From Bdellovibrionales bacterium (lineage in GTDB: Bacteria; Bdellovibrionota; Bdellovibrionia; Bdellovibrionales; JAGQZY01): a DNA stretch of 64,000 bases. Below are positions 10,681 through 58,063 of the stretch, piece by piece. The notes under the pieces are model-generated. The model was not told where the DNA came from. It searched no databases and was given only the letters and a program-made list of their open reading frames with translations. Each line of letters opens with the position of its first letter. The first letter of the stretch is position 1. The stretch is taken from assembly GCA_043757265.1 (NCBI GenBank), contig JAYUQP010000018.1, forward strand, positions 27,620 through 91,619, given 5' to 3'. Both the position numbers and the translations under genes were made by a program.

Positions 10681-12372
10681 ATGCTAGTAGAGCTTAAGGT
10701 TTCAAATTTCGCAATCATCGATCAGATTCAGCTGGAGTTTGGTACCAACCTCAATATCATCAGCGGAGAGACCGGGGCTGGGAAGTCGGTTATCGTCCGT
10801 GCTCTCGGCCTTTTGATGGGAGCCAAGTCGCAAACCGAGGACGTGCGCGAGGGGCTCGAGCAATCTGTGGTCGAAGGACACTTTGATCTATCAAGTCGAA
10901 AAGATATTTTAAGCTCGCTCAAAGAGTTTGGAATCACCTCGTCCGAACAGGAACTTCTTGTTCGTCGGATCATCAGCCGGGATGGAAAAAATCGTGTTTA
11001 TATTAACGGCCATCTTTCCACTCTGGCAGACTTAAAAAACATCGTAGCTCCTATGGTCGAAGTCACGGGGCGAGGCACACCACTCATCGAAGTGACCAGC
11101 CAGAGCGAAAATAAAAACCTTCTCTCTTCGCAATACCACCTCGATATGCTCGATCAATTTTGTAAAACTTGGGAATTGCGTAAAAAGGTTCACAGCTTAT
11201 TTTCGCGAATTCAAAATATCGAAGACTCGATCCAAGATTTACGAAATTCTTCGCGCGACCGCAGTCAGCGAGTTGATTTTATTAAGTTTCAAATTGATGA
11301 GATTTCTAGTTTGGAATTGAACGCCGAAAAAGATGCGGACTTAGAAGATCGATTGAAAATTCTAAAAAATCAAAGTTCTCTAACGTCCTTTTATCATAAC
11401 TCGATTGAGGTTCTTGAAGGAGATAGCTCAAGCGTGCTGTCACTTCTCGATAAGGTTATTAAATCAGCAACGAACCTCAAGCACCGGCCCGAGGTGATTG
11501 AAAAATCAATTCAGGACCTGCAATCGGCCAAACAACTGGTTTCCCAAGCAGCTTTTGATATTAACCAGCTGGCCCAGCAAACTCTCGACGAGGGCGAACT
11601 GGATACGCTGGAATCTCGTCTCTCCGACATTCGTCGTCTGCAAAAAAAGTTTGGTCCTCTCGTACACGATATACTCAAAGCCTACGAAGAGATGAAGAGC
11701 GAACTGGATACATTGGAAAATAGCGATGAAAAAATTGCTCAGCTGGAAATAGAAAAAAAAGCTATCACAGTAGAACTGTCACCTGTTTTGCAAAAACTTT
11801 CTCAGCAACGGGCGAAAGGTTCCAATAAATTATCAGACCTCGTAAATCAGGAGCTTGCTGAATTAAATATGAAAGGCGTGCTGTTTTCGATCAGTACCGA
11901 GACCGTTGCGGTCAACGGGACCGGCCAGGATTCAGTGATGTTTGCCATTCAGAACGGGGCAAAGGGCGAGCAGAGGCCCTTACAAAAATCGGCAAGCGGT
12001 GGAGAATTGAGTCGTATCCTTTTATCGTTAAAAGTTGCCGTCGGAGAAATCGATTCGCCGCGCACATATCTTTTTGACGAAGTGGATACTGGAGTTAGCG
12101 GACCCACAGCGCAAAAAGTGGGGAAAAAACTAAAAGAGATCGCGCACGGACAGCAGGTTATTTGTATAACTCATTTACCTCAGGTTGCATCATACGCTGA
12201 TCAACATTATTTTATTTCTAAAAAGTCCGTTAAGGGTCACATGAACATGACAGCTGTTGCACTTCAGGGAAAAGAACGGGTTGAAGAGATTGCTCGACTA
12301 ATTTCGGGGGAAAAGTTGAGCTCTACAAGCCTTGCCCACGCCAAACAGTTGTTGAGTGACGCTCGCGCTTGA
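10681..12372 (+). CDS. recN: DNA repair protein RecN
   Basis: 563 aa. N-terminal Walker A GETGAGKS, a long coiled-coil middle, and C-terminal SGGELSRILL plus FDEVDTG (SMC-like signature and Walker B). Confidence 0.95.
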   Translation: MLVELKVSNFAIIDQIQLEFGTNLNIISGETGAGKSVIVRALGLLMGAKSQTEDVREGLEQSVVEGHFDLSSRKDILSSLKEFGITSSEQELLVRRIISRDGKNRVYINGHLSTLADLKNIVAPMVEVTGRGTPLIEVTSQSENKNLLSSQYHLDMLDQFCKTWELRKKVHSLFSRIQNIEDSIQDLRNSSRDRSQRVDFIKFQIDEISSLELNAEKDADLEDRLKILKNQSSLTSFYHNSIEVLEGDSSSVLSLLDKVIKSATNLKHRPEVIEKSIQDLQSAKQLVSQAAFDINQLAQQTLDEGELDTLESRLSDIRRLQKKFGPLVHDILKAYEEMKSELDTLENSDEKIAQLEIEKKAITVELSPVLQKLSQQRAKGSNKLSDLVNQELAELNMKGVLFSISTETVAVNGTGQDSVMFAIQNGAKGEQRPLQKSASGGELSRILLSLKVAVGEIDSPRTYLFDEVDTGVSGPTAQKVGKKLKEIAHGQQVICITHLPQVASYADQHYFISKKSVKGHMNMTAVALQGKERVEEIARLISGEKLSSTSLAHAKQLLSDARA

Positions 12373-21462: not shown

Positions 21463-21676
21463 GCTTTTGAGATTTCTACATGGATATTTTGAATTTGAGA
21501 TCTTTCTTTTTATGACCTCTGTTGAGCGGCCCCCCGGAACGAGCTTGCTCGTGAACGAGCGCGAAGCGCGTGGGGACTTGGACGCGATCGCGAAGCGACA
21601 ACAGTTGAGACACGGAGGTCGTGTCATAAAAAGGAAGATCTCAAATTCAAAATAGCCACGCAGAAATTCCCAAAAG
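21463..21676. repeat. 214-bp palindromic element filling the murC-murB spacer (about 54-bp AT-rich arms, about 100-bp GC-rich centre)
   Basis: The left arm gcttttgagatttctacatggatattttgaatttgagatctttctttttatgac (21463-21516) pairs with 21623-21676. The inner 31 bp have 1 mismatch; the outer part has a few mismatches and a 1-nt indel. The centre contains sub-palindromes cgagcttgctcg, gcgcgaagcgcg and gcgatcgc. Confidence 0.9.
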
Positions 21677-25345: not shown

Positions 25346-26005
25346 CTATGGATAGTGCGCTGAAACTGCACGAACAATGCGATCACACATGATCTCATAG
25401 CCGTCATCGTTTGGATGAAACTGATCAGCCATTTTAGAGGCGTCATTCCACAACCCATCCATCCCATTAACAATGATGGCTCCATTTTCCCGGGCTACTT
25501 GCGCCATATCTTGCAGTCGCTTTGCAGCGGCCGGATCGTATGGCGGGTTAAGAGCTAAATATACAACAACAGCCCCGGCTGTTTGAAATTGAAGAATAAT
25601 GCGCTTGAGTTCGCGAACACTCTTGTCCGCAGGATAGGAACCGGGAGTGTAATACTCAGAAATCGCGTCGTTTCCACCGGTGCTGATAAAGGCAAGTTTA
25701 GGCGGTCGGTTGAGATAAAAAGGAACGTTGTCGACAAGCTCGTCTGTTTTTAATCCTGGGATTCCATAACTCGAAACCGTCGCACCAGAAAACTCGTTTT
25801 CCAAACACGCAGCGGGCGTGTAAACAAAATCTACGGATCCTGATCCATGGGCCAAACTATCGCCCATCACATGAATTCTACCCGCTCCAGGCTTTGAGTT
25901 TGTTATTTTTGGCCCCGTGTCCGTGGCGGCGTCTTCCGAGCTTGAACACCCGGCAATTAGAGATGCAAACACTAGCGAATAAAAAAGATTATTTATAATT
26001 TTCAT
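25346..26005 (-). CDS. SGNH/GDSL-family hydrolase lipoprotein
   Basis: 219 aa with lipobox LIAGC. Block I HVMGDSLAHG, block III STGGNDA, block V DQFHPNDDGY (DxxH). Confidence 0.8.
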   Translation of the reverse strand: MKIINNLFYSLVFASLIAGCSSSEDAATDTGPKITNSKPGAGRIHVMGDSLAHGSGSVDFVYTPAACLENEFSGATVSSYGIPGLKTDELVDNVPFYLNRPPKLAFISTGGNDAISEYYTPGSYPADKSVRELKRIILQFQTAGAVVVYLALNPPYDPAAAKRLQDMAQVARENGAIIVNGMDGLWNDASKMADQFHPNDDGYEIMCDRIVRAVSAHYP

Positions 26006-26169
26006 GATTCTCCCCCTTTAGAAAATTAAAGGGAGCATAGCAGTGACGTTTTAATTTAAAAGTCGCAGCGCAAAATTCACCTATCCAAGTCTAGTAGAGG
26101 CAAAAAGATGAGGGACTTATTGGAACCGGACTTGTGGCGATTGGACTCGCGAAGAATACTGGAAGGAGC

Positions 26170-27558
26170 ATGACGATATTTTTTATTTTCATTCTCTCAC
26201 TATCTTCTTACGCTCAGCAACCCGCCCCTGCAGCTTTTGACTGTCGCCAGGGAATGGTGGAATTTGGTGGCGCTCCCAATCGGGGAGTTGCCAATCGACA
26301 ACCCCTTTGCACTCAAGATCCAGGGCGAATGGTGGCTGAACTCAAACAAGCAATCACGCAGTACCTTTGCCTTTACCACGCGGATCTTGAGTGTTTACAG
26401 AAAAACCAGGCTTTTTTGGCATCAAGAAGAAACCAACAGGGCAACTTTGCACAGGACTTTGAAAGAATGGTCGGCAGTCAGTATTTGAACTCTTGGCTGC
26501 GAAATTCGAACAATCACTACTACCATCCGGGTCTTGCTTCCGAATCATCTCTCTTTCCCGACGAAACCCAGCAAAACAGTGGGATCACCACGGATGTGGT
26601 GCAAATCCTCGCGAACTTTGTCCCTGGCGGCGTGGCAAGACTCGCTAGCATTGGCACATCCGTTTTTGGAACTTTTCAAACCATGGGACGTTCGTCCACG
26701 GGTACCGATCCGGGCAACGACTGCACAATTCCCAGAAACAGGTTTATCAATGCGCAGCCCGTACCCGACTCACGGGGTTCAGCAAGTAAGATTTGCTCCC
26801 CAAGCTATAACTTCAATTCCAATCCTGTTGCAGACTTTCTCAAGCAGGATCCGCAACTCCAAGCAACGGGTTTGGTTTGCGCGGATGTTTGCCTCTACTA
26901 TGCCCAACTTCTTAGCCATATGAATCTTGCCAATTTGCAGATCCTTGGAAGCGTGATGCCTATTTTCAGTCAACGCCCCCAGTGCCTTGCGGGGGGCAGA
27001 GCAAGTTTCAGTTTCTGCGCCATGAGAGAAAGCTTAGGAGGGTTTAGCGGAGACGTGAACTGGAACTGCCTGGACAACCGAGGCCAGCATATTTCGCACA
27101 CAGGCCGCATGGTGCTTCCTCTCGAATGGAGTGTCACAACCGATCTGATCGCCCGAAGCGAAGTTCAAGCCACTGTGAGCCCCACCTACAATCTGGATTC
27201 AGATAGAGTCACCATGCGAGTGCCCACTATTCCCCGCATGCGAGCCGGAGCAAGCCCCCCTGCCGCCGTGGCTGCACCCATCGGTGGGCTTGCATCATAC
27301 GAGACCCGTGAAGGAATCACGCTTCGCGATGCCTTCCACCGCACTCAATATGCCATTGGTAGCGGGCCACAGGTACCACTTTTATCGCTGCGCGGTGACC
27401 CTGCTCTTCGAGGAATGGGTATTGCTTCCGCCGTTGTTTCGGGTTGTTGCTCTGTGCCCGAGCCAAATCGCGAACAATGTTTACGAGCTCTGCCCACCAC
27501 CGAAATGTATCGCCCGCGGGACCGCAACGAAGAAACAGCAATCCCTACAAATAATTAA
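26170..27558 (+). CDS. Secreted cysteine-rich protein, unknown function
   Basis: I chose the ATG at 26170 because GGAAGGAG lies 2-9 nt upstream. Signal peptide MTIFFIFILSLSSYA/QQ. About 16 Cys are spread through ~460 aa. I recognise no family. Confidence 0.6.
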   Translation: MTIFFIFILSLSSYAQQPAPAAFDCRQGMVEFGGAPNRGVANRQPLCTQDPGRMVAELKQAITQYLCLYHADLECLQKNQAFLASRRNQQGNFAQDFERMVGSQYLNSWLRNSNNHYYHPGLASESSLFPDETQQNSGITTDVVQILANFVPGGVARLASIGTSVFGTFQTMGRSSTGTDPGNDCTIPRNRFINAQPVPDSRGSASKICSPSYNFNSNPVADFLKQDPQLQATGLVCADVCLYYAQLLSHMNLANLQILGSVMPIFSQRPQCLAGGRASFSFCAMRESLGGFSGDVNWNCLDNRGQHISHTGRMVLPLEWSVTTDLIARSEVQATVSPTYNLDSDRVTMRVPTIPRMRAGASPPAAVAAPIGGLASYETREGITLRDAFHRTQYAIGSGPQVPLLSLRGDPALRGMGIASAVVSGCCSVPEPNREQCLRALPTTEMYRPRDRNEETAIPTNN

Positions 27559-27935
27559 AAGTTGAAGCCTTGGTACTCGCAATCCGCCTTCAGATCTACA
27601 AGACGCTCTTGAGAAATTTCGCTGCACTCTTGTATCGAAGACAAAATTACTTCTACGAGCGTGCAATAATCGGCCTTTTCCTGGTAAGGCGGCGGATACC
27701 AGCTTGTATCTTGGAGGTTAGTTCGAATGATATAACGGAGCTGCAAAAAATTTTCTGCTCGTGAAGGAGTGAGCCGGTGGGGCTCAATGAATCTTTCCAC
27801 GTTTTCATTGTCTAAACAGATAAGATCTGTAAGAAACTCCGCTTCGACTTCCAAGCCATTGGTAAGAAGTACGCGATCGGCAAAGACGACCGAAGTGGTA
27901 AAAGACAATATAAGAAACAGAGCGAAAAGCTTCAT
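27555..27935 (-). CDS. Small secreted protein (4 Cys), unknown function
   Basis: 126 aa with signal peptide MKLFALFLILSFTTSVVFA. Its 3' end overlaps the convergent gene by 4 nt (TTAA). Confidence 0.5.
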   Translation of the reverse strand: MKLFALFLILSFTTSVVFADRVLLTNGLEVEAEFLTDLICLDNENVERFIEPHRLTPSRAENFLQLRYIIRTNLQDTSWYPPPYQEKADYCTLVEVILSSIQECSEISQERLVDLKADCEYQGFNF

Positions 27936-30598: not shown

Positions 30599-32068
30599 TT
30601 ACTTTGTTGTAAAATTTTTGGGCCCAAGACCAACAAGCACTTTCTCAAGCGCGCCGCCTCGCGATCCCTTTATAACCACCAAAGTTTTATTATTTAGCAT
30701 ACTTTTTAATTTCAAAGCAAGAGAATCTTCGTAACTATCCGATATGAATAGATTTTTACCGCTTTTTGCAGCCTCAAATCCAGCCTTAAAATGAGCTTGC
30801 GACGCGCCGGCAAAGTAGCACTCGTGGATGGGGGAGGATGCGATGTTTTTTCCAAGTTCAAAATGCTCGGCCGATGCCTGCTCACCGAGTTCGCGCATCT
30901 CACTAAAAATGCCAATCATTTTTTGATCGGCTTTGGCCACTGATGGAAGATTGCTAATCAGCGCTGCAAAACTATCGGGATTGGCATTGTAGGCATCAAA
31001 CAGAGCCTGTGCCCCCGAATGCAACATCACCCATTGGTTTCGCCCCCAGCCGGTTTGACATTTTTCAAGTTGGGAAAAAATGACCTCAACTTTTACGTCT
31101 GCAAGCAGAGCCAAACTGCTCGCCGTCATCAGGTTGAGCACATTCTGTGCGCCGAACAACGGAATCATCAAAGTTTGTTCGTAATTATAAAGGCGGCAGT
31201 GAATTTTCAATCCGCCGACTTCACTTGAAAAAAGTCTAAACTCCACATCGGATTCTGCTGTTCCAAATGTGATCGTGCGTGAAAAATTATCTTTAAGCCT
31301 TGCGTGCATGTCAGCTGTGCGTGGGTCGGCTAAATTAAACGCCGCCTTCGTCGATTTTGGAAGATCTTGATAGATCTCCTCTTTGGCTTTAGCGATTCCC
31401 TCAACAGTGCCAAAATGTTCGATGTGGGCGCGCCCCACATTATTCACCACAACGATATTTGGCTGCGCAATTCGGCATAGATCTGTTATCTCGCCCGCAT
31501 GATTCATTCCCATTTCGAGCATGGCGACTTCATGTTCGGGGTTTAACTTTAAAAGCGTAAGCGGCAATCCCCAATGGTTATTAAAACTGCCCTCATTTTT
31601 GAGCGTGCAGAACTGTCCCTCAAGCAATGTTGTTGCGAAATCTTTCACTGTGGTCTTCCCATTACTGCCAGTCACCGCAATCACCGTTTTGCCCCACTTC
31701 TCACGCCAAAACTGTGCGAGATTCTGTAAAGCCTTCAACGTGTCATCGACTTGGATCCACGTGGTCTTTGTTAAAAGTGGCGCATCGTCTACCGTCCATT
31801 CGTGAGAAATGATGGCGCTAGCTCCATTTTCCACAGCTTGCATTATGTACTGGTGTCCATCATGGGTATCGCCTTTTAGCGCGATAAAAATTTTACCTCG
31901 CACATCTTTGCGCGAATCAGTAACAATCTCGGAAAATTCATTTCCATGCTGACTTCGAAGTTTTCCACCAGTGCCACGAACTAAGTCGTCAGTACTCAAC
32001 CCGACACTCAACCCGACACTCAACTCGCTACTCAATCCAAGACCCATTCCGCCACTCGACCCATTCAT
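30599..32068 (-). CDS. murF: UDP-N-acetylmuramoyl-tripeptide--D-alanyl-D-alanine ligase (with repeat-containing N-terminal extension)
   Basis: 489 aa. GSNGKTT P-loop and [21 protein letters not shown] overlap with the murE stop. The first ~26 aa ([25 protein letters not shown]) are encoded by 12-nt tandem repeats. Confidence 0.93.
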
Positions 32069-33570
32069 AAGGTATCCTTTTCTAATAACGACTTCATTTT
32101 CTCGAAGTCACTAAATGGCAGCGTTGAATCGCCGATGATTTGATAATCCTCATGTCCTTTTCCGGCGATTACCAAAATATCTTCAGCGTGGCTCAGATCG
32201 AGCGCTTTTCGAAACGCGCGCTCTCGGTCCACTTCGGAATACGTGTTGGCTGGCGAAGAGCCACCGGCTAAAATTTGATTTATTATATTTTGTGGATCTT
32301 CCGAGCGCGGATTGTCAGAGGTGACCACGGAGTGTGTGGAATATTTTTGCGCCATTTGCATCATGAGGGGGCGCTTTCCCTGATCGCGATCGCCGCCGCA
32401 GCCAAACACGGTGATTAACTGGGCGGATGGTGCTTTGATATTTGAAACTGCTTGCAGAACTTTTTCTAAAGCATCGGGTGTGTGCGCGTAATCGATAAAA
32501 ACATGACGTCGGTGCTTGTTTGGAACGCGCTGTAGGCGACCCGGCACACCGTTGAATTGCTGAAGCGCAAGCTTGCAAGTCTCTTGCGTGATACCCAGGC
32601 AGCGCGCAACGGCAATCGAGCCCACGCAGTTTGCCACATTGTGTTCGCCGATCATGGATGTTTTATACTTGGTTGTTTTGTTTGCGCTGGAATTTTTTCC
32701 GCCGGAGGTTTTTTCCCGTATCTCAAACTGCATTCCATCTACGGTGGCTTGTAAAATCTTAAACGTGAAGTCGCAGTCATCTGTCTGCCCAAAGGTCAGT
32801 TTTTGCGCACGGCGGTCCACCCGAACGCTTTTCACCTTTGCATCGTCCGCATTCAAAATCGCGAACACATCGCCCTCTTGCTTAAGGTGATCGGTGAAAA
32901 GTTTTTGCTTACTTTCGAAGTAGTCATCCATCGTTGGATGATAATCCAAATGATCTCGCGTAAAGTTTGTAAACAACGTAATGTCAAATTGCGTGGGTAC
33001 ACGTTTTTGTTTCAAACTATGGCTCGAAACTTCCATCACGTAACTTTTGGCACCAAAAAAAATAAAATCCTGCAGTCGCTGATAAAAGGTCGCCGCGTCG
33101 GGAGTGGTAAGAGAACTTTTCCAAGTATGGTTTTTAAAATGATGATCAATGGTGCCCATCACTCCGCAGGGGACCTGTGCCCAGTTGAGGATCTGCTCGA
33201 TCATATAACTGGAACTGGTTTTTCCGTTGGTTCCGGTGATTCCTACAGAGATTAATTTTTCTTCGGGATGAGCGTAAAATTCGGAAAGCACGGACGCATA
33301 GGCAAGCGCAGAATCGAGAACTTGGACAGTGACACCTTTAAAGTCTGATGGGATTTTTTGTGGGGCCTCTACCACTACGGCGCAGGCGCCTTGATCGATG
33401 GCCTTTTGCAAATAATTGTGCCCGTCGCTGCTTACACCTTTGATCGCCACGAAGACAAACCCGGGCTCAACTTTGCGTGAGTCCGATGTCACCCCTTTTG
33501 GCACAAAATCAGGTGATATTTGCTGCCAGTCGATTTTTCCAAAGAATGTGAGAAGGTTTTTAAGTGTCAT
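32065..33570 (-). CDS. murE: UDP-N-acetylmuramoyl-L-alanyl-D-glutamate--2,6-diaminopimelate ligase
   Basis: 501 aa. GTNGKTS P-loop and TSDSRKVEPGFVFVAIKG. DNPR motif (TSDNPRSEDP), typical of meso-DAP-adding MurE. Confidence 0.95.
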   Translation of the reverse strand: MTLKNLLTFFGKIDWQQISPDFVPKGVTSDSRKVEPGFVFVAIKGVSSDGHNYLQKAIDQGACAVVVEAPQKIPSDFKGVTVQVLDSALAYASVLSEFYAHPEEKLISVGITGTNGKTSSSYMIEQILNWAQVPCGVMGTIDHHFKNHTWKSSLTTPDAATFYQRLQDFIFFGAKSYVMEVSSHSLKQKRVPTQFDITLFTNFTRDHLDYHPTMDDYFESKQKLFTDHLKQEGDVFAILNADDAKVKSVRVDRRAQKLTFGQTDDCDFTFKILQATVDGMQFEIREKTSGGKNSSANKTTKYKTSMIGEHNVANCVGSIAVARCLGITQETCKLALQQFNGVPGRLQRVPNKHRRHVFIDYAHTPDALEKVLQAVSNIKAPSAQLITVFGCGGDRDQGKRPLMMQMAQKYSTHSVVTSDNPRSEDPQNIINQILAGGSSPANTYSEVDRERAFRKALDLSHAEDILVIAGKGHEDYQIIGDSTLPFSDFEKMKSLLEKDTL

Positions 33571-36332: not shown

Positions 36333-37523
36333 ATGAAAACAATTAAAAATTCAATCGCGTTACAAATTTTTCTGGCTGTGATCCTAGGCGTAGTTGTTGG
36401 TCTTTGGGCGCCGGGCGAACATTTAGCCATCTTTACGAAGCTTGCTAAGATGATTTTGCACTGGGTGCGTTTGATTGCTGGGCCGTTTTTATTTTTCTCT
36501 GTGGTTCTTTCTTTGTTACAAATCCAAGCGAAATGGTCTTCAGGAATTAAACTGATCGGTATAGCACTTTTCAACACAGCTTTGGCACTGGTAATCGGCA
36601 TCACAATGACCATGGTTTTTTTAAACGACATTTCTATTCCCCTCCCAGCTGAGACGAAAACCGAAAAGCCGGTGGCCACACTCAGCACAGATGGCTGGGT
36701 GCAAACGCTCAGTCCTGAAAGTTTATTTGCACCACTGGTTAAAAATGAAATTCTTTTGATTGCGCTTCTTTCGCTCCTGGTTGGGTTGGCGGCTAGACAG
36801 GCCTTTAAAGAACAACCCGATACGTTAAAAAAAATCGCATTTGGCTTCGAAGCCGTTCGCAGTATTTTAGAACAAATGCTGTTATGGATTTTAAAAATTA
36901 TTCCGCTGGCTGTATTTTTAGTAATTGCAGGATCCGTCGCGCAGTATGGGTTTGACGTTTTTTCGAAACTTGCAATGTACGTAGCCGTAGTAGTAAGTGC
37001 ACTCGCGTTGCAATGTATTTTGGTGTATGGGACCTGGATAGTGGCTGTGGTAAAAATTCCGATGCGCCGTTTTTGGCAAGAAGCCAAGGGCCCGTTGATT
37101 TACGCTCTCGGAATCAATTCGAGCCTGGCGACGCTTCCCCTCACACTGAAGGCCCTCAAGCAGCTTCGAGTATCGGATAGCGCCGCCTCATTGGGTGCCG
37201 GTGTTGCGACCAATCTAAATAACGATGGAATCGTTCTTTATGAAGCCTCGGCAATATTTTTTATTGCGCACTTACATGGTTTACAGTGGGACCTTTGGCA
37301 AATGATCACGGCAGCACTTGCGTGCGTCGTCGCAGCCGTGGGTATCACGGGCGTTCCCGAAGCAGGATTTATTTCGCTCACGGTAGTCGTCACGAGTTTA
37401 GGCCTGCCCATGGAAACGCTTCCGCTGTTACTATCAGTAGATTGGGTCATGGCCCGCCTGCGCTCGTGCGTAAATGTGCTTAGCGATATGACCCTCGCCA
37501 TCGTTCTTGACCACTTCGAGTAA
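36333..37523 (+). CDS. Dicarboxylate/amino acid:cation symporter (DAACS/SLC1 family)
   Basis: 396 aa, polytopic. N-terminus LQIFLAVILGVVVG. Motifs TSSSAT-like INSSLATLP, and VATNLNNDGIVLYEA and ITGVPEAGFISL. Confidence 0.88.
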   Translation: MKTIKNSIALQIFLAVILGVVVGLWAPGEHLAIFTKLAKMILHWVRLIAGPFLFFSVVLSLLQIQAKWSSGIKLIGIALFNTALALVIGITMTMVFLNDISIPLPAETKTEKPVATLSTDGWVQTLSPESLFAPLVKNEILLIALLSLLVGLAARQAFKEQPDTLKKIAFGFEAVRSILEQMLLWILKIIPLAVFLVIAGSVAQYGFDVFSKLAMYVAVVVSALALQCILVYGTWIVAVVKIPMRRFWQEAKGPLIYALGINSSLATLPLTLKALKQLRVSDSAASLGAGVATNLNNDGIVLYEASAIFFIAHLHGLQWDLWQMITAALACVVAAVGITGVPEAGFISLTVVVTSLGLPMETLPLLLSVDWVMARLRSCVNVLSDMTLAIVLDHFE

Positions 37524-37712
37524 GGTACGGACACACTTTTGGGACTCACTGCATATAGAAAAGGAACTGGATTGTCCGATGCCAGGTCCTGTTTATGTCC
37601 GAGTGGGACGCTTCCGAACATAAACAGGACCTGGCACCGGAGACCGTATACCGTTTAAGGTACGCCGTTCCTTTTCTTTATGCAGTGAGTCCCAAAAGTG
37701 TGTCCGTACTTT
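37522..37712. repeat. 191-bp nested palindromic element (44-bp outer arms plus 26-bp inner hairpin) filling a convergent intergenic region
   Basis: The outer arm aggtacggacacacttttgggactcactgcatatagaaaaggaac (37523-37566) pairs with 37668-37711 (2 mismatches). The inner stem ccgatgccaggtcctgtttatgtccg pairs with cgaacataaacaggacctggcaccgg. The element starts inside the symporter stop codon and ends 3 nt from the cfa stop. Confidence 0.9.
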
Positions 37713-37714
37713 AC

Positions 37715-38890
37715 TTAAACCGGGGCGATCCAGTATTGGCTGACGCTGATTCGTTGCGCGCGGAACGCACCCTCGCAGTAGCTGAGATACAAATTCCATA
37801 GGCGAATAAATCGGTCGTCAAAACCCATGGCCCGTACATGCGGCAGAGCATTCATAAAATTCTCGCGCCATAACTTGAGCGTATGTGCATAATCCAAACC
37901 AAACTCATAGGAGTCGTATACAGCCAGTCCGTTTTGTTCACTCACCTTGGCAACAGCTTTGTCAGTCAAAAGCATTCCTCCCGGGAAAACCGATTGCTGA
38001 ATAAAATCTGTCCCTTTTTTGTAAGAGTAAAAAAGATCTTCGCGAATCGTGATTCCTTGAATGGCTGCCTTTCCTTTTTCTTTCAAAGATGATCGCATTT
38101 TTGAGAAAAAGGCATTCCAATACTGTTCGCCCACCGCTTCGATCATTTCGATGGAGACCACTTTGTCGTAGCGTCCAGAGATATCGCGGTAATCTTGTTG
38201 AATCACATTGACGTGGTCTTTCATGTTTAATTTTTCAATTCTCGTTTGGTTATAGCGGATCTGTTCCGGGGAATTTGCCACCGCCGTTACTTTGCAACCA
38301 GTACGCTCAATGGCACGGCTGAAAAACCCGCCCCAGCCACAACCAATTTCTAAAAGATGATCTCCTGATTTGATTTCTAAAGAATCAATAATCTGATCGT
38401 ACTTTTGGTTTTGCGCCTCTGCTAAACTCTGCTTCTCGTCTTTGAAAATTGCGGCTGAGTACGTCATGGATTGGTCGAGCCATAGACTATAAAACTCATT
38501 GCCTAAGTCGTAATGAGCCATAATATTCTTTTTCGCACCTTTGCGATTGTTGCGATTTAAAAAGTGGTGGACTTTCGAAGCGATGGTGCCGTACCACGAC
38601 CCGTAGATGACTTTAGCTAAATCTTGATCGTTGCGGCACGCCCACTCCACAAGCGCCGCCACATCATCAACCACCATAAGCTCGTCGACAATCGCCTCGG
38701 CCAAACCGATATCACCTTTGCTAAAAAGCAAATCGAGCGCCGTCCAATTTTTGAGATGCACATGAATGCGGGGCAAGCCTTCTCCGTACTGGTCGCGGCT
38801 CCCATCGGGCAATATTATGTCGAGTGTTCCATGCTTTGCGTTTTTGAGGACTTTGAGGAACATTTGTCCACGGAATGATGGGGCTTTCAT
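37715..38890 (-). CDS. cfa: Cyclopropane-fatty-acyl-phospholipid synthase family SAM-dependent methyltransferase
   Basis: 391 aa. SAM motif LLEIGCGWGGF and HYDLGNEFY upstream, with C-terminal YLSYCEGAF. These are classical CFA/mycolic acid methyltransferase motifs. Confidence 0.88.
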   Translation of the reverse strand: MKAPSFRGQMFLKVLKNAKHGTLDIILPDGSRDQYGEGLPRIHVHLKNWTALDLLFSKGDIGLAEAIVDELMVVDDVAALVEWACRNDQDLAKVIYGSWYGTIASKVHHFLNRNNRKGAKKNIMAHYDLGNEFYSLWLDQSMTYSAAIFKDEKQSLAEAQNQKYDQIIDSLEIKSGDHLLEIGCGWGGFFSRAIERTGCKVTAVANSPEQIRYNQTRIEKLNMKDHVNVIQQDYRDISGRYDKVVSIEMIEAVGEQYWNAFFSKMRSSLKEKGKAAIQGITIREDLFYSYKKGTDFIQQSVFPGGMLLTDKAVAKVSEQNGLAVYDSYEFGLDYAHTLKLWRENFMNALPHVRAMGFDDRFIRLWNLYLSYCEGAFRAQRISVSQYWIAPV

Positions 38891-39636
38891 TTTGTGACCT
38901 CCTTATGAGGTGGTGAAGGTTTAGAGTGAAAACGAATTCTACGAATCCATAATTTAAATGCTTGGTAATGTATTCGGAGAACCACCAAAGGCGTAATCCA
39001 TCCGTATTTGAAAAAAAGACTAAAAAAACCGTGCTGAGCAAGCGGCGTGAGATTGCCATTTACCCACGTCGCGAGACGAATTGATCCATTTGGATTGTAG
39101 TAGTTGATGTCGATTTTTATGCGACTTGGGCAAAACTGAAAACGAAATTTGTAAAATCCATCCACCGGGAAAAATGGCGACACATGAAATACTTTTTCTG
39201 AAGTATACCATTCAGAATCCGAAATACCTTGCGGAGGATTGATAAAATAAAAGTGACGTTCGCCAAAAGTGTTGTGAACTTCTACTAAAATAGCGTCGAG
39301 CTTAAAGTTTTTATAACAACACCAAAAAGTTACCGGATTGAATGCATAGCCAAACATACGCGGCATTGAATAAAGCCAAATTTTCTCGGGCTCGTAGCTG
39401 CATTGAACTCTGAGGAAGTCTTTAGCCGCCGTCGCGAGCGGTTGAGACGTTTGATTGAGATAATCTTCCGTTTTGAATGAAAGCAGACCAAAAAACTTTT
39501 TGCGTAAAACATTTAAAAAGTCGTTTTCCTTTTCACAATCAACGAAAACAAAAAAAGTAGGATAGCGAAATTTCGACTTAATGCCCTCTTTGCGGCTATG
39601 GTAAACAAAACCTTGGCTAAGCTTTAGACTACTCAT
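38887..39636 (-). CDS. DUF1365 family protein
   Basis: 249 aa. The N-terminus GFVYHSRKEGIKSKFRYPTFFVFVD fits the DUF1365 G-x-V-x-H-x-R...F-x-Y pattern. ATGA overlap with cfa, and an 8-nt overlap with the upstream flavoprotein gene. Confidence 0.8.
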   Translation of the reverse strand: MSSLKLSQGFVYHSRKEGIKSKFRYPTFFVFVDCEKENDFLNVLRKKFFGLLSFKTEDYLNQTSQPLATAAKDFLRVQCSYEPEKIWLYSMPRMFGYAFNPVTFWCCYKNFKLDAILVEVHNTFGERHFYFINPPQGISDSEWYTSEKVFHVSPFFPVDGFYKFRFQFCPSRIKIDINYYNPNGSIRLATWVNGNLTPLAQHGFFSLFFKYGWITPLVVLRIHYQAFKLWIRRIRFHSKPSPPHKEVTK

Positions 39637-40888
39637 TCGTCACCGTCCACGGAGTTGTAACCCCGAGCATCTCAGCCACCTGAACAGCGCTCAATAATCC
39701 GTCCTCGTGAAATCCATAACGGGTCCATGCCCCGGCATAATATACTCCACCATTTCCTTGAATTGAAGGCAGAAGGCGCTGAGCGCGAATAGCGGCTTGG
39801 TTAAACTGTGGATGCGAATAATCAATCTCACGCTGATAATCTTTTATTTCCGTTGCGGGGTTTAAGGTCAAAAAATAATCTTTCTTGCTCGGCAGCTTCT
39901 GCAGCTCATTCAGATGGTAGGTTAAGGAGACTTTGCTGCTTTCGCCACTGGCATCTCCATAAACGTTCCATGCAGACCAGCAGCGTTTTGTCCGTGGCAT
40001 TAATTCTTCGCGGTTGTGCAGGTAAGCCTTATTCGCCTCGTAGCAAATGGCCGAAAGGACGTTTTTCTCCTCAGCAGATTGATCCTTGAGAATCTTTGCG
40101 GTGATCGGCGCGTGAGTGGCAAGAACAACGCGGTCGAATTCGAAAGATTCCCTCGGAGTTTTTAAAAACACTTTGTTAACTGCTCGTTGAACATCGACGA
40201 CCGGAGACGATAGATGAATGTGTTTAATTTGCGCTGAGGCTTTTTTAACGTACTCAATACTTCCATTTTTTACAGTTCTCCAAACGGGGCGGTTGTTTAC
40301 TTGCAAAAGTTTATGGTTGATAAAGAAGGTTAAAAATGTGGACGCCGGAAACTCAAGCATCTTGTTTTCTGGCGTCGACCAAATGGCAGCACCAATCGGC
40401 AGAAGATAATCTGTTTTAAACACGTCCGAATATTTTCGAGCCTTTAGCATTTCACCCAGCGTCCAGGCATGGCGAAGCGCCGATTGGCGGTTCGTCTCAG
40501 CCTCTTTTCCGAAGCGCAAGATTTCTAAAAGCATTTTATAAAAACTGAGTTTAAATAAATTTTTTCGCTGGCCAAAAATCGTATTTAAATTTCCGCCACT
40601 CCACTCGAGATTTTTTTGCAAAACCTGAATGGATAGTGACATGCTTGAGTCTATGGTTTCAACATTGAGATGTTTGAAAAATTGTGTGAGGTGTGGATAC
40701 GTCAATTCGTTGTAAACCAAAAAACCGGTATCCATGGGTATGCTTCGTTCAGATTCGTTCATCTCAACTGTATGGGCATGTCCGCCGAGGCGAGAATCCG
40801 ACTCAAAAAGATGCACTTCGTGTTGCTTTGAAAGGAGCCATGCTGCGCCTATTCCGCTTATGCCTGAGCCAACCACTGCTATTTTCAT
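39629..40888 (-). CDS. FAD-dependent oxidoreductase (amine-oxidase / phytoene-desaturase-like)
   Basis: 419 aa. Dinucleotide-binding N-terminus MKIAVVGSGISGIGAAWLL...LFESDSRLGGH. It is the first gene of the three-gene operon. Confidence 0.85.
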   Translation of the reverse strand: MKIAVVGSGISGIGAAWLLSKQHEVHLFESDSRLGGHAHTVEMNESERSIPMDTGFLVYNELTYPHLTQFFKHLNVETIDSSMSLSIQVLQKNLEWSGGNLNTIFGQRKNLFKLSFYKMLLEILRFGKEAETNRQSALRHAWTLGEMLKARKYSDVFKTDYLLPIGAAIWSTPENKMLEFPASTFLTFFINHKLLQVNNRPVWRTVKNGSIEYVKKASAQIKHIHLSSPVVDVQRAVNKVFLKTPRESFEFDRVVLATHAPITAKILKDQSAEEKNVLSAICYEANKAYLHNREELMPRTKRCWSAWNVYGDASGESSKVSLTYHLNELQKLPSKKDYFLTLNPATEIKDYQREIDYSHPQFNQAAIRAQRLLPSIQGNGGVYYAGAWTRYGFHEDGLLSAVQVAEMLGVTTPWTVTNE

Positions 40889-40969
40889 GGTTTTATTCCA
40901 TTCGTATTAATGTCACACATGCTGACATTAAATCATTGATCTTTTAAAAGAGGAAGTGCAAAATAACTT

Positions 40970-41593
40970 ATGGCTCAGATTAAGAAAAGTATAAACGAAT
41001 GCACAACAACGAAACGAAAGTATAATAATTCGTCACGGGCCGAAAAATCGACGCAAACTCAGAAGGCTATTATCGAAGCATTGATCGAACTACTGGTCGA
41101 ACGTCGAGGCGGCGATGTGCAGCTTCAGGATGTGGCAAAAAGAATCGGAATCACTCAACGAACTATCTTTCGCTTTTTCAAAGATAAAAAAACACTGCAT
41201 GAAGCGATGGATACCTACCTTTTGGGTTACCTTCAATCGAGCACCGAGCAGATGGAAACACTTAGCTTTATCGGCTTTGCAAAAAACGCCTTTAAACTTT
41301 TTGATCATCATGAATCTCTCACCATGGCTTATGTTCTTTCGCCTTTTGGTCAAGAAGCCCGAGCGTTGCTACGAAAAAAATTAACGCATTTAATGATTGC
41401 GCGGATTGCTGCCGAGAAAAAAATCAATATGAATCCACAGATTTTAAAACGCTTAGCTCTTGTGACCTGTTTAGTGAATGCAAAAATTTGGTATGATCTG
41501 CGTGAAGATTTTGGATTCAACGGCGAAGAAATGGGCGAAGCCGTTGATTGGGCCCTGCAAAAACTAATACATAGCTGCGAGGAAAACATATGA
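40970..41593 (+). CDS. TetR/AcrR family transcriptional regulator
   Basis: 207 aa. N-terminal HTH LQDVAKRIGITQRTIFRFFKDKKTL. Divergent from the flavoprotein-DUF1365-cfa operon. Confidence 0.85.
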   Translation: MAQIKKSINECTTTKRKYNNSSRAEKSTQTQKAIIEALIELLVERRGGDVQLQDVAKRIGITQRTIFRFFKDKKTLHEAMDTYLLGYLQSSTEQMETLSFIGFAKNAFKLFDHHESLTMAYVLSPFGQEARALLRKKLTHLMIARIAAEKKINMNPQILKRLALVTCLVNAKIWYDLREDFGFNGEEMGEAVDWALQKLIHSCEENI

Positions 41594-42396
41594 TACGAAG
41601 AAATTTTTTGATTTTGACTTTGGTGCTCTCTGCTGGCATTTTTTTTGGCTGCGCGAGTCTTTTACATGCGAACAGGTATGATGTAAAAAAAGACGTCGCG
41701 TTCAAGACCGTCGAGGGTTTAACTCTAACAGCTGATTTGTACATTCCCAAACAAGGAAATAATCGTCCTGCAGTGGTGGTGGTTCACGGTGGATCGTGGG
41801 CGAAACGCAGCGGCGATATGGAAAGTCTCTGCAAAGATCTTGCTGCTGAGGGATTCGTTGCAATGAACGTGACGTATCGACTTGCTCCGCAGAACCTATA
41901 CCCAAAGGCTTTGGATGACGTGCGTGATGCTGTCACATGGCTCAAAAATAATTCACCCCGACTGAAGGTGGATGCAAAAAATATCTCGATTTGGGGTTAT
42001 TCCTCGGGCGCTCACCTGTCATTGCTCACAAGCCTGGATGGCACTCTCGGCATCAAGGCTGTCGTAGCTGGTGGAACGCCAGCGAATCTGACAGCGTGGC
42101 CCAACTCGCCGCTCGTGAAAACATTTTTGGGCGCAACCTACGCGGAGGCTCCGCAACTTTGGGAAAAGGCTTCGCCCGTGTTCAACGTGACCGATAATTC
42201 GCCGCCAGTCTTTTTATATCACGGCGCCTGGGACAGCCTTGTTGAACCTGAACAAATGGACATGATGGCTGAAGCATTGCGGAAAAAGAATCGCGAAGTA
42301 ACAACCTACCGCGCGCCGTTTTTTGGCCATATCGCAGTTTACTTATTCAGCTTCTCGTCCGTAAATCAGGGAATCGAATTCATCAAAGCGCACTAA
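41590..42396 (+). CDS. Alpha/beta hydrolase lipoprotein (esterase/lipase-like)
   Basis: 268 aa with lipobox FFGC. Oxyanion-region VVVHGGSW and nucleophile elbow GYSSGAH (GxSxG). ATGA overlap with the TetR gene. Confidence 0.8.
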   Translation: MIRRNFLILTLVLSAGIFFGCASLLHANRYDVKKDVAFKTVEGLTLTADLYIPKQGNNRPAVVVVHGGSWAKRSGDMESLCKDLAAEGFVAMNVTYRLAPQNLYPKALDDVRDAVTWLKNNSPRLKVDAKNISIWGYSSGAHLSLLTSLDGTLGIKAVVAGGTPANLTAWPNSPLVKTFLGATYAEAPQLWEKASPVFNVTDNSPPVFLYHGAWDSLVEPEQMDMMAEALRKKNREVTTYRAPFFGHIAVYLFSFSSVNQGIEFIKAH

Positions 42397-42589
42397 GGTA
42401 CGGAAAGACTTTTGGAACTCCGTTTGTTGGACTTCTAAATTTGAAATCGTTCTTTTGATGAGAAGATCCTCCTTGGCTCATTTGCTTTCGTTCCACGATC
42501 GTATCTCGGACAATCCGGTGCCAGGTTCTGTTTGTGTCCGGAGACGTGGTGCCCGGACACAAACAGGACCTGGCACCGGATTGTCCGGA
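42395..42589. repeat. 195-bp intergenic element related to 37522..37712 (same 5' end and same inner hairpin family)
   Basis: It starts aaggtacggaaagacttttggaactc (compare aaggtacggacacacttttgggactc). It contains a 35-bp stem: cggacaatccggtgccaggttctgtttgtgtccgg pairs with ccggacacaaacaggacctggcaccggattgtccg. It lies between the convergent hydrolase and ftsI stops. Confidence 0.85.
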
Positions 42590-42590
42590 G

Positions 42591-44507
42591 TCATTCTAAA
42601 TAGACTTTAAGTTTTTTGTCGTCAGTCCATGCTTCGCCGACGGCGGGAGATGTTTTAACGACGCGGCCTTTGCGGCCCACGAGATTTAAATCCACTTTTT
42701 CTTTTTGTACGAAGCGAAGCACATCGCGAAGGGCCCAGCCTTTCATCTCCGGAACAAAACCTTCGCCCTCGGCGCCTGCGAGAACTTCATGAACTTCTGT
42801 GCGTGGCTTAATCAAGTCCTCCACTGCAAACTGCACTGGCGCGAGACCTCGCTTGTTAATTGCATAATGGGCAATCTTTGCAAAAATCGGAGCTGCAGTT
42901 TCTGCCCCGTAGTATCCGTTATTCCTGGGATTATCCACCACGACATAAATTAAAAATTCGGGATCATTGGCAGGTAAAAATCCTATGAAACTCGAGATGT
43001 ACTGTCCCTTCAAATATCCCCGGCCATTGGGATCTACTTTTTGCGCAGTCCCCGTCTTACCTGCAACTGGGAATCCCCGCACGCGGGCCGATTTACCGGT
43101 GGCTGTTTCGGCAGTGGCCGCGACAAGCATCATTTTAACTCTCTCAGCTTCCTTTTCCGAAAGAACACGGCCGAGAGTGCGCTCCTGCGCGGCTTTTCCA
43201 TCTAAGATTTCTTTTTGCGATTTGACTAAAATCGGTCGCTGCAAAACTCCCTTATTAGCAATGGCGGCGTAGGCATTTGCCATTTGCAAAGCTGTTACGG
43301 CCACACCGTGACCAAAAGAGATATTCGCCTTATGATGATCGCGCCATGGAGGAGTTAGTAAAATTCCTTTAGACTCCCCTGGCAAATCAATACCGGTTTT
43401 TTCGCCGAAACCAAATTTTTTATATTCGCTAAAAATTTGTTGATCTTTCATCTTCAGCGAAATTTTCGAAATACCAACATTGGACGAGTTTGCTAAAACT
43501 TCGGTGGTAGAAAGTTTTTCGTAAGTATGTTGCGCATCAGATTCGCGAATCATTCGCTTATCGATTTCGATCTGCCCGGTAGATGTATCAATCACCGAAT
43601 TGCCTTGGATGATTCCGTTTTTAAGAGCGGCGGCCAAGAACATGGTCTTCATGGTGCTGCCGGGTTCGTAAACATCAGTCGAAATACGATTTCGTCGAGA
43701 CTCTTTACTGGCACCGCCCGCATTGTTAATATCAAAGTCAGGAAGCGAAGCCATAGTCAGGATCTCACCCGTTTTCGGGCTCATAACCACGGCCCATGCG
43801 GCCTCGGCATTATGATGCAAGATTGCCTTTTTGAGTTCTTGCTCGGTGTAGTACTGCAAATCGGCGTCGATGGTTAAATACACATCTTCACCGTCCCGAT
43901 TTTGCATAAACAGCCAACCGTCTTCAACGAGAAATCGGCCGCGCGCATCTTTTGGTAAGTTCATCACTTTTTCTTCGGCACTTAAGCGCGCATCATAGCG
44001 TGCTTCGATACCCTCAAGACCGTGTCCGTCCGCTCCCACAAAACCAATGGTGTGCGCCATAAGATTTTTGTTCGGGTAAACACGTTTGAATTCATCTTTG
44101 AAGCCTAGGCCTTTTTCGTTGAGCGCTAAAATTTTCTTTTTCGTATTTTCGTCGAGCAAACGTTGCATCCAAACAAAACGCGAGTTTTTTTTAGTTAATT
44201 TTTTATAAATAGTTTTTTGCGAGAGTGGAAGAATCTGCGACATTTTTTTTGCCAAGCGCCGCGGCGTTTTAATTAAGAGCGGGTCGGCAAAGAGCGAGGA
44301 TGAAGGCACCGAGATTGCAAGTTCTTGGCCGTTCCGATCAAAGATGTCTCCCCGCTTGGAATAAAGCTTTACGATTCTTTGATATTGTTTTTGGCTGGCG
44401 AGATCCAAATTATGACTAGGATACAACTGAATTTGCAAACCGCGAAAAACTAGTAATGACCAGATTGCGAAAAACCAGATGAGGAGAATAGATAAACGAT
44501 GCTTCAT
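42591..44507 (-). CDS. ftsI: Peptidoglycan D,D-transpeptidase FtsI (class B PBP) with a C-terminal PASTA domain
   Basis: 638 aa with an N-terminal TM. Motifs STMK (GSTMKT), SSN (NSSNVG) and KTGT (GKTGTAQ). The last ~60 aa (VPEMKGWALRDVLRFV...GRVVKTSPAVG) look like a PASTA domain. Confidence 0.93.
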   Translation of the reverse strand: MKHRLSILLIWFFAIWSLLVFRGLQIQLYPSHNLDLASQKQYQRIVKLYSKRGDIFDRNGQELAISVPSSSLFADPLLIKTPRRLAKKMSQILPLSQKTIYKKLTKKNSRFVWMQRLLDENTKKKILALNEKGLGFKDEFKRVYPNKNLMAHTIGFVGADGHGLEGIEARYDARLSAEEKVMNLPKDARGRFLVEDGWLFMQNRDGEDVYLTIDADLQYYTEQELKKAILHHNAEAAWAVVMSPKTGEILTMASLPDFDINNAGGASKESRRNRISTDVYEPGSTMKTMFLAAALKNGIIQGNSVIDTSTGQIEIDKRMIRESDAQHTYEKLSTTEVLANSSNVGISKISLKMKDQQIFSEYKKFGFGEKTGIDLPGESKGILLTPPWRDHHKANISFGHGVAVTALQMANAYAAIANKGVLQRPILVKSQKEILDGKAAQERTLGRVLSEKEAERVKMMLVAATAETATGKSARVRGFPVAGKTGTAQKVDPNGRGYLKGQYISSFIGFLPANDPEFLIYVVVDNPRNNGYYGAETAAPIFAKIAHYAINKRGLAPVQFAVEDLIKPRTEVHEVLAGAEGEGFVPEMKGWALRDVLRFVQKEKVDLNLVGRKGRVVKTSPAVGEAWTDDKKLKVYLE

Positions 44508-51984: not shown

Positions 51985-52320
51985 ATTTATTTTTGAATCC
52001 TCGGGAAATGGAAAACCTCTTTTTCCAAACGCGTCCATCCTGGACTCACTTGCAAGACGAAACTTCCTGTTTGCAAGAGGTTTGAAAAAAAGAGATTTTC
52101 CATTTCCCAAGTATCCAAAAATAAATCCAAAAGTGCGAACTGAATAGCTCTAACCTCGTATAATAAAAACGGGTCTGGGTGGGAGAATCTGCCTGGGCTT
52201 TCTCAACTCTCAGCAAATGTGAAATGGTATTTTTTTAAACCTCTTGCAAACAGGACGTTTCGCTTTGCAAGTGAGTCCAGGATGGACGCGTTTAAAAAGA
52301 ACTTCTTTCCACTTCTTTCT
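51985..52320. repeat. Composite nested inverted-repeat (MITE/BIME-like) element
   Basis: 40-bp TIRs B (51985-52024) and B' (52087-52126) flank a 65-bp core A (52027-52091). An inverted, ~90% identical core copy A' lies at 52230-52293, flanked by degenerate B-like sequence. A TATAAT box is at 52159-52164 in the spacer. Confidence 0.85.
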
Positions 52321-57944: not shown

Positions 57945-57953
57945 CATAGCCTT

Positions 57954-58012
57954 CGTCCTGAGCGTAGCGAAGGATCTCACATACTCAGATCCTTCGCTGC
58001 GCTCAGGATGAC
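57954..58012. repeat. REP-like hairpin between convergent genes
   Basis: cgtcctgagcgtagcgaaggatc (57954-57976) pairs with gatccttcgctgcgctcaggatgacg (57988-58012). One arm recurs at 1731-1753. Confidence 0.8.
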
Positions 58013-58063
58013 GGGTGGATGCAAGGGATGACGGAGGGTGCGCTCGGACTGACAGCTCACCGA

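Follow-up and report, generated by a model that had tools for sequence, protein, structure and literature searches.

A probable furan fatty-acid cassette with its own TetR-type regulator, inserted between two cell-division genes of a Bdellovibrionales bacterium

Genes for the synthesis of furan fatty acids have been characterised in proteobacteria. In Rhodobacter sphaeroides, UfaM (RSP2144), a homologue of cyclopropane fatty-acid (CFA) synthase, methylates phospholipid-bound vaccenate, the product is desaturated by UfaD (RSP1091), a flavin adenine dinucleotide (FAD) protein of 430 aa, and UfaO (RSP1090) is a DUF1365 protein of 250 aa (PMC7380195). The sigmaE/ChrR regulon of this species, which includes the RSP1091-1087 operon and RSP2143-2144, has been linked to oxidative and light stress (PMC3546557, PMC7380195), and ufaM is co-located there with a photolyase gene (PMC3546557). 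In Rhodopseudomonas palustris CGA009 the genes RPA2571 (ufaD), RPA2570 (ufaO) and RPA2569 (ufaM) are contiguous (Lemke et al. 2020, PMC7380195), and in Halomonas ufaM, ufaD and ufaO are consecutive, the in-cluster methyltransferase giving 11-methyl-octadec-12-enoate in E. coli (PMC12089945). Here we analyse a stretch of 64,000 nucleotides, hereafter the window, from a Bdellovibrionales bacterium of the Pseudobdellovibrionaceae (GenBank assembly GCA_043757265.1, contig JAYUQP010000018.1, positions 27,620 to 91,619 of the forward strand), in which the same three protein families are encoded in a row within a five-gene cassette. By analogy with the described systems, this cassette probably makes furan fatty acids, which are membrane antioxidants, under the control of a TetR switch, and was inserted long ago between two cell-division genes.

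The three-gene operon is encoded on the reverse strand. Its first gene (39629-40888) encodes an amine-oxidase/phytoene-desaturase-like FAD protein of 419 aa, with the Pfam domains Amino_oxidase and NAD_binding_8, that has the amine oxidase LkcE as its best match in the PDB (7e-34) and is predicted to be a UfaD-like fatty-acyl desaturase. The second gene (38887-39636) overlaps the first by 8 nt and encodes a protein of 249 aa that matches DUF1365 over its full length (PF07103, 3e-63); it is predicted to be UfaO-like, and no relative was found for it in the PDB. The third gene (37715-38890), with an overlap of 4 nt, encodes a predicted UfaM-like S-adenosylmethionine (SAM) methyltransferase of the CMAS family with 391 aa (Pfam CMAS, 2e-83). 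Divergently, on the forward strand, lie the genes of a TetR-family regulator of 207 aa (40970-41593, Pfam TetR_N) and of an alpha/beta-hydrolase esterase of 268 aa (41590-42396, Pfam BD-FAE, 1e-39, and Abhydrolase_3), which also overlap by 4 nt. The esterase is a predicted lipoprotein, since its N-terminus (…LSAGIFFGC) is compatible by eye with a lipoprotein signal under the PROSITE lipobox rule. Open reading frames (ORFs), Pfam and a repeat search placed these genes, their overlaps and two flanking palindromic elements where the original prediction had described them. Its proposal that such genes belong to the singlet-oxygen regulon of R. sphaeroides and are linked to furan fatty acids was also correct: RSP1091 is UfaD, RSP1090 is UfaO, and R. 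palustris shares the gene order (PMC7380195).

The closest described arrangement is ufaD-ufaO-ufaM of R. palustris, which has the same three families, contiguous and in the same order, with a matching size pattern, a likeness of family, order and size and not of compared sequences. The sizes are also close to those of R. sphaeroides (419 against 430 aa for the FAD protein and 249 against 250 aa for the DUF1365 protein). In contrast to R. palustris, which belongs to a different phylum, the window adds the divergent TetR and the lipoprotein esterase, and no second methylase of the fufM type is visible in it. The R. sphaeroides operon also has FAD, DUF1365 and CFA-like genes in a row, but it is under extracytoplasmic function (ECF) sigma/anti-sigma control, its UfaM is unlinked and it carries an extra short-chain dehydrogenase/reductase (SDR) and other genes (PMC3546557, PMC7380195), whereas the window has TetR and none of those extras.

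Regarding the methyltransferase, it has in common with canonical Cfa (E. coli, PDB 6BQC; Lactobacillus, 5Z9O) the fold family, the two-domain length and the SAM-binding motifs, and it is 31% identical to the solved CFA synthases. However, canonical cfa is a stand-alone gene, whereas the gene of the window is coupled to those of the putative UfaD and UfaO. The protein scores under every NCBIfam Cfa equivalog cut-off (238 against 600, 235 against 400 and 200 against 650 bits). At the bicarbonate ligands of E. coli Cfa, which we take to be C139, E239, H266, I268 and Y317, the window protein has A, E, Q, I and Y, two of the five being replaced (A147 and Q278). Its top 120 homologues are all from Bdellovibrionales, and every one of the 120 has Ser or Ala and Gln at the equivalents of C139 and H266. 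Two plasmid-borne methyltransferases, 41-42% identical to the window protein, share this signature: one follows DUF1365 in an operon of Paracoccus, and the other, the best match in a Cupriavidus cluster, is separated by about 3.7 kb from the DUF1365 gene there. Several further plasmid records, from uncharacterised organisms, have their best match to the window methyltransferase directly beside a DUF1365 gene, and the nearest proteobacterial homologues are those that adjoin DUF1365 genes. These sequence features set the protein apart from canonical Cfa.

The CFA-like protein is most likely UfaM, with the DUF1365 protein as the putative UfaO and the flavoprotein as the putative UfaD. By analogy with the characterised enzymes, the CMAS-family protein would transfer a methyl group from SAM to phospholipid-bound cis-vaccenate, giving 11-methyl-12-trans-18:1, and the flavoprotein would desaturate this product to the 10,12-diene (10t,12t). 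The DUF1365 protein would then add an oxygen derived from O2, and closure of the furan ring would yield 9M5-FuFA, which could act as a scavenger of radicals and singlet oxygen. The lipoprotein esterase, presumably co-transcribed with tetR, may have a lipid-related role.

The 81-nt spacer between the divergent genes contains a perfect palindrome, TTAATGTCA-N7-TGACATTAA, at 40907-40931, 19 nt upstream of the start of the FAD gene. This palindrome occurs once in the window, with none expected by chance. When the window was compared with DNA stretches from relatives (loci L002, L003 and so on), the palindrome was found to be exact in five loci: the window itself, L002, L003, L006 and L011. In L011 it is preserved although the cassette lies at another genomic site and the remaining spacer has diverged. 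It has one or two mismatches in L017 and L018 and takes a variant form in L007; the tetR gene adjoins the operon also in L011, L017, L018 and L019. Judged from sequence, the palindrome at 40907-40931 is a strong candidate for the TetR operator, and TetR bound there would repress the operon until a ligand, probably a lipid, frees it. No ECF sigma/anti-sigma pair diverges from the operon, the divergent gene of the window being TetR. The Paracoccus plasmid operon has the sigma/anti-sigma arrangement, and the Cupriavidus plasmid, like the window, pairs a tetR gene with FAD-DUF1365.

The cassette lies in the division/cell-wall (dcw) cluster, next to ftsI (42591-44507, reverse strand) on one side and to a gene for a sodium:dicarboxylate-family symporter (36333-37523, forward strand) on the other. 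Beyond the symporter follow a hypothetical gene and a trypsin-like protease gene, and the cluster resumes with murE (32065-33570, reverse strand; NF001126, 509 bits against a cut-off of 373). The original prediction had placed the block between ftsI and murE; both genes do flank it, but the whole interruption amounts to 9.0 kb and eight genes, of which the repeat-bounded block is only the 4.9 kb nearest to ftsI. For Bdellovibrio, a literature search returned nothing relevant on either furan fatty acids or the dcw cluster.

Three relatives with about 93% FtsI identity (L002, L003 and L006) have the order ftsI, esterase, TetR, FAD, DUF1365, methyltransferase, symporter, hypothetical, protease and murE, which could be followed through murE in L002, to the protease in L006 and to the symporter in L003. 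Cassette proteins are 72-90% identical between these loci and the window, against 83-94% for the flanking proteins. The composition of the cassette, which might have differed from that of its flanks, is core-like: its genes have a G+C content (GC) of 0.39-0.49, where the window averages 0.459±0.023, and its tetranucleotide distance ranks 4th of 51. A compositional anomaly was accordingly rejected as a sign of recent transfer. The presence of the cassette at this site in three close relatives, together with its core-like composition, shows that the insertion is old. In L020 (FtsI 81%), by contrast with this clade, the gap between ftsI and murE holds a 150-aa ORF, the symporter, the hypothetical gene and the protease, with neither cassette nor repeat, and so represents an empty site. 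A survey of relatives, by which the original prediction could be judged, thus finds the cassette at one site in L002, L003 and L006, with arms of the repeat family described below at its junctions, and finds it absent from L020. A tRNA scan found none, so the cassette is not a tRNA-linked island.

The same five genes occur elsewhere. In L011 they lie beside formaldehyde-detoxification genes, in L017 beside a beta-lactamase-family gene, and in L019 (3073-11127) between a DNA photolyase gene and a group formed by a short second CMAS gene, a DUF1475 gene and a DUF1295 gene. These neighbours in L019 are companions typical of the proteobacterial singlet-oxygen regulon, and the photolyase recalls the location of ufaM in R. 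sphaeroides. The trio is found alone in L007 and L009, and L018 (6047-9173) has TetR, FAD and methyltransferase genes without DUF1365; if the pathway assignment is right, L018 would stop at the methylated diene. From these neighbourhoods, the five genes behave as one evolutionary unit, present in four unrelated Bdellovibrionales contexts including that of the window. The cassette would have entered the ftsI/symporter junction as one piece in an ancestor of the window's clade and have been inherited vertically since. The proposal that the block was acquired as a unit therefore stands with respect to the unit, given L011, L017, L019 and the empty site, but not with respect to a recent acquisition, given the relatives with 93% FtsI identity and the core-like composition.

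The junction itself has a longer history. L021 (FtsI 63%) has only the protease before murE, L020 has the four genes named above, the window and L002 have eight, and L003 and L006 have extra genes at two repeat-bearing junctions; L005 (FtsI 78%) has different genes after ftsI, and its contig ends before any murE. From this series, the ftsI-murE junction has gained genes stepwise (from one to four to 8-11). The extra genes of L003 (12202-13077 and 17813-19769) encode an unassigned 291-aa ORF, a DUF2846 protein and a 390-aa ORF, and that of L006 (17224-18510) an erythromycin-esterase-like protein. The location, which had been called unexpected, looks less odd, as every relative examined has an interruption of the dcw cluster at ftsI|murE, and the cluster is broken a second time at murD|ftsW. 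It is a habit of the lineage and not a singular event. The murD|ftsW interruption (25346-27935) contains hypothetical genes of 126 aa (reverse strand) and 474 aa (forward strand, GC 0.52) and a GDSL-family lipase gene, and L021 has a lytic transglycosylase gene there.

Both borders of the cassette coincide with long palindromic elements located between convergent genes and starting at or within 3 nt of stop codons. Element A (37519-37715, 197 nt) lies between the convergent symporter and methyltransferase genes and is built as one palindrome nested in another, with 49-nt outer arms (96% complementary) that enclose an inner hairpin at 37575-37641 (27-nt arms, 93% complementary, and a 13-nt loop). 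It folds with an energy of -138 kcal/mol (z = -18). The symporter gene takes its TAA stop codon from the first triplet of element A, and the symporter ends in HFE* here and in HFEK* in L002 and L006. Element B (42394-42590), between the esterase and ftsI, consists of a single outer arm, a mosaic middle and a hairpin. The arm (42394-42420) is identical to that of A at 24 of 27 positions and starts at the esterase TAA; the hairpin (42507-42587, 35-nt arms, 97% complementary) is 82% identical to the inner hairpin of A and ends 3 nt from the ftsI stop. The fold energy of B is -101.5 kcal/mol (z = -9.4). The interiors of both elements carry the CCGGTGCCAGGTCCTGTTT hairpin. Search patterns for arm and hairpin have no expected matches in shuffled sequence, and they found no further copy in the 64-kb window. 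No Rfam family matched the elements, either at the gathering threshold over the window or at an E-value threshold over 30-48 kb and 51.9-52.4 kb; what appeared were miRNA-precursor models below threshold, which are generic hairpins.

Repeats of the MITE (miniature inverted-repeat transposable element) and REP (repetitive extragenic palindromic) types, such as Correia/NEMIS of Neisseria and ERIC/IRU of enterobacteria, are non-coding sequences of about 100-200 nt whose ends form long inverted arms. Scattered between genes, near gene ends and usually next to TA, they vary between close relatives; as MITE pairs, in the so-called integron mobilization units, they can flank cargo. The elements of the window resemble them by description, not by sequence. 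Element A is short and non-coding with terminal inverted repeats (49-nt arms in 197 nt), whereas element B has one arm only, and the interiors are mosaics that differ between genomes. A profile of the outer arm, with the consensus TAAAGGTACGGACACACTTTTGGGACTCATTGCATAAAAA, has matches at each of the two cassette junctions of L002, L003 and L006, and these are its only matches in the compared DNA of that clade. Interiors are not conserved at these orthologous positions, where L003 and L006 have a different core of about 60 nt at the centre and L002 has solo arms only. The two junction copies of L006 are 92% alike, about as alike as they are to the orthologous copies of L003. A scan of JGI metagenomes found the arm motif in three further contigs, always at the very end of the contig, either after an unrelated gene (NFACT-like or RodA-like) or before an ATP-binding cassette (ABC) ATPase gene. 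In the Logan assembly of the same genome the contig ends within element A; L004 and L022 both stop just past ftsI, and contig L022 carries part of an arm at one of its ends. With copies beside unrelated genes and assemblies that break there, the arm family behaves as a multi-copy dispersed repeat. Elements A and B carry the terminal arms of this previously undescribed, non-coding, MITE-like family, which is located at gene 3' ends and often reuses or supplies the stop codon. By eye, TA directly precedes seven of the nine intact arm ends, often as the TA of a stop codon, although this TA may instead belong to the element. In our reading, insertion at a stop-codon TA would let the element regenerate TAA. 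No match was found for element A among PLSDB plasmids or for the arm motif among IMG/VR contigs.

Further repeats accompany this family. The middle of element B (42438-42501) is 75% identical over 64 nt to 21585-21647, inside another palindrome at 21465-21674 (52-nt arms) between murC and murB, which suggests that the intergenic palindromes are mosaics of shared modules; this palindrome was rejected by nhmmer as a member of the arm family. The centre of the junction palindromes in L003 and L006 is a conserved core repeat of about 60 nt, AAACGCGTCCATCCTGGACTCRCTYGCARGACGAAACNTCCTGTTTGCRAGAGGTYT, flanked on both sides by arms that vary in sequence but are complementary to each other. In the RNAalifold prediction it has an outer stem and two hairpins, with compensatory changes in 7 of 26 pairs, and it matches no Rfam family. 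In the window it is present only as an inverted pair at 52015-52098 (forward) and 52222-52305 (reverse), in a non-coding stretch after a response-regulator/GGDEF ORF. The other copies are at 1642-1725, 1829-1913, 11970-12054 and 16881-16965 in L006, 1841-1925 and 11970-12053 in L003, 1951-2034 in L002 and 7396-7480 in L004. The inner hairpins of A and B were considered as a version of this core and rejected, as an nhmmer profile and a covariance model recover only the ten training copies; any relation is at best remote. Two more long intergenic inverted repeats, at 2686-2805 (57-nt arms, 84%) and 57950-58014 (28-nt arms, 89%), are unrelated in sequence to A and B.

The repeats mark the borders of the cassette and are no more than a possible vehicle for it. 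The original prediction had taken the two flanking copies as a sign that the block was acquired or can be rearranged as a unit, and no causal role of the repeats emerged, as other copies of the cassette lack the repeats and arms occur beside unrelated genes. An alternative to simple marking is that a MITE-like pair picked up the five genes and carried them to the site between ftsI and the symporter as a composite, non-autonomous transposon, or that they arrived there through recombination between repeat copies. We consider this possible but doubtful. Two observations fit repeat-mediated insertion and so tell against our view: the difference from the empty site L020 is exactly element B, the five genes and element A, and the repeats fall on the cassette borders that L011, L017 and L019 indicate independently. 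Copies of the repeat in this genome were counted within the 64-kb window only. Members of the family are moreover present at both junctions in all four genomes of the clade, the two junction copies of L006 are closely alike, extra genes were gained at the same junctions in L003 and L006, and L020 lacks cargo and repeats together. Against such a vehicle, it is not improbable in itself that two elements fall on neighbouring convergent junctions: by our own arithmetic, with 14 such junctions in the window, this would happen by chance with a frequency of about 0.14 (13/91), and coincidence with both pre-defined borders with one of about 0.01. The cassettes of L011, L017 and L019 have neither arm nor core repeat at their borders. 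Element B has no outward-facing arm, so a composite would lack matching outer ends. By eye, there is no clear target-site duplication around the unit, only a GAG trinucleotide on both sides. No transposase or autonomous partner was seen in the window or the compared loci, where no systematic search was made for one. Arms also occur singly beside unrelated genes, and both ends of the cassette are gene 3' ends that face convergent neighbours, the usual lodging site of the arm family. It is likewise only a tentative idea that the palindromes are the footprint of delivery into the essential dcw cluster, with stop codons and hairpins at the borders that insulate ftsI and its neighbours. If true, such insulation would account for the tolerance of this junction to repeated gains of genes.

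Several points weigh against the furan fatty-acid reading of the cassette. R. sphaeroides does not need its in-operon methyltransferase, RSP1089, and its genuine UfaM is encoded outside the operon (PMC7380195), so a position in the operon does not guarantee UfaM activity. The predicted orthology with UfaD, UfaO and UfaM has as its grounds domain, size, order and signature, and not characterised reference sequences. We infer ourselves that losing the bicarbonate site would suit a methylase whose reaction forms no cyclopropane ring. A promoter scan recognised no sigma-70 promoter around the candidate operator; the promoter and terminator scan gave fewer matches than in shuffled sequence, and none at elements A and B or at the operator. 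It could be that the operon methyltransferase is a paralogue of the RSP1089 type, in which case the operon alone would make no furan fatty acid and would depend on a second methylase elsewhere or serve another lipid. Besides RSP1089 itself, this would agree with the Paracoccus plasmid operon, which is of the R. sphaeroides type (sigma/anti-sigma pair, SDR and TspO) and whose methyltransferase shares the S..EA..Q signature of the window, and with L018, where FAD and CMAS genes are present without DUF1365. We regard it as unlikely, since the in-cluster methyltransferases of R. palustris and Halomonas are functional UfaM, and a second methylase can be judged only within 64 kb of this genome.

Another explanation of the palindromes is that they are not mobile and evolved locally as bidirectional terminators or mRNA-stabilising hairpins between convergent genes. 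Their position between such genes, at most 3 nt from stop codons, their extremely stable folds and the other long intergenic palindromes of the window would suit this explanation. It is nevertheless quite improbable, because other contigs have arms of at least 92% identity next to unrelated genes and assemblies are broken there, the stems are not followed by a T-tract and neither A nor B was picked up in the terminator scan, and the interiors differ between orthologous positions in relatives. A terminator-like side effect of the palindromes may exist. Finally, an ordinary cyclopropane fatty-acid synthase operon with accessory genes is very improbable, for although the best PDB and NCBIfam matches of the methyltransferase are CFA synthases and public annotations name its homologues CFA synthase family proteins, its scores are well under all equivalog cut-offs, the equivalents of Cys139 and His266 are replaced throughout the clade, and translational coupling ties its gene to those of the UfaD and UfaO types.

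All that was found is of a known kind, be it the probable furan fatty-acid operon, the TetR-type switch with its operator or the MITE-like repeats, and none of it overturns current understanding. What is new is the five-gene form with TetR and esterase, its operator and the repeat family. The palindromic family, undescribed until now, causes metagenome assemblies of this group to break. The relatives also provide a natural series of accessory genes piling up at one junction of the division/cell-wall cluster, from the empty site to the cassette and to the cassette with extras. The compact form, with its own TetR switch, a located candidate operator and an esterase, could be a handy self-contained unit for making furan fatty acids in a heterologous host and for identifying the inducer. 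If the assignments hold, the ufaD-ufaO-ufaM pathway, so far demonstrated only in a few proteobacteria, would be extended to the Bdellovibrionales.

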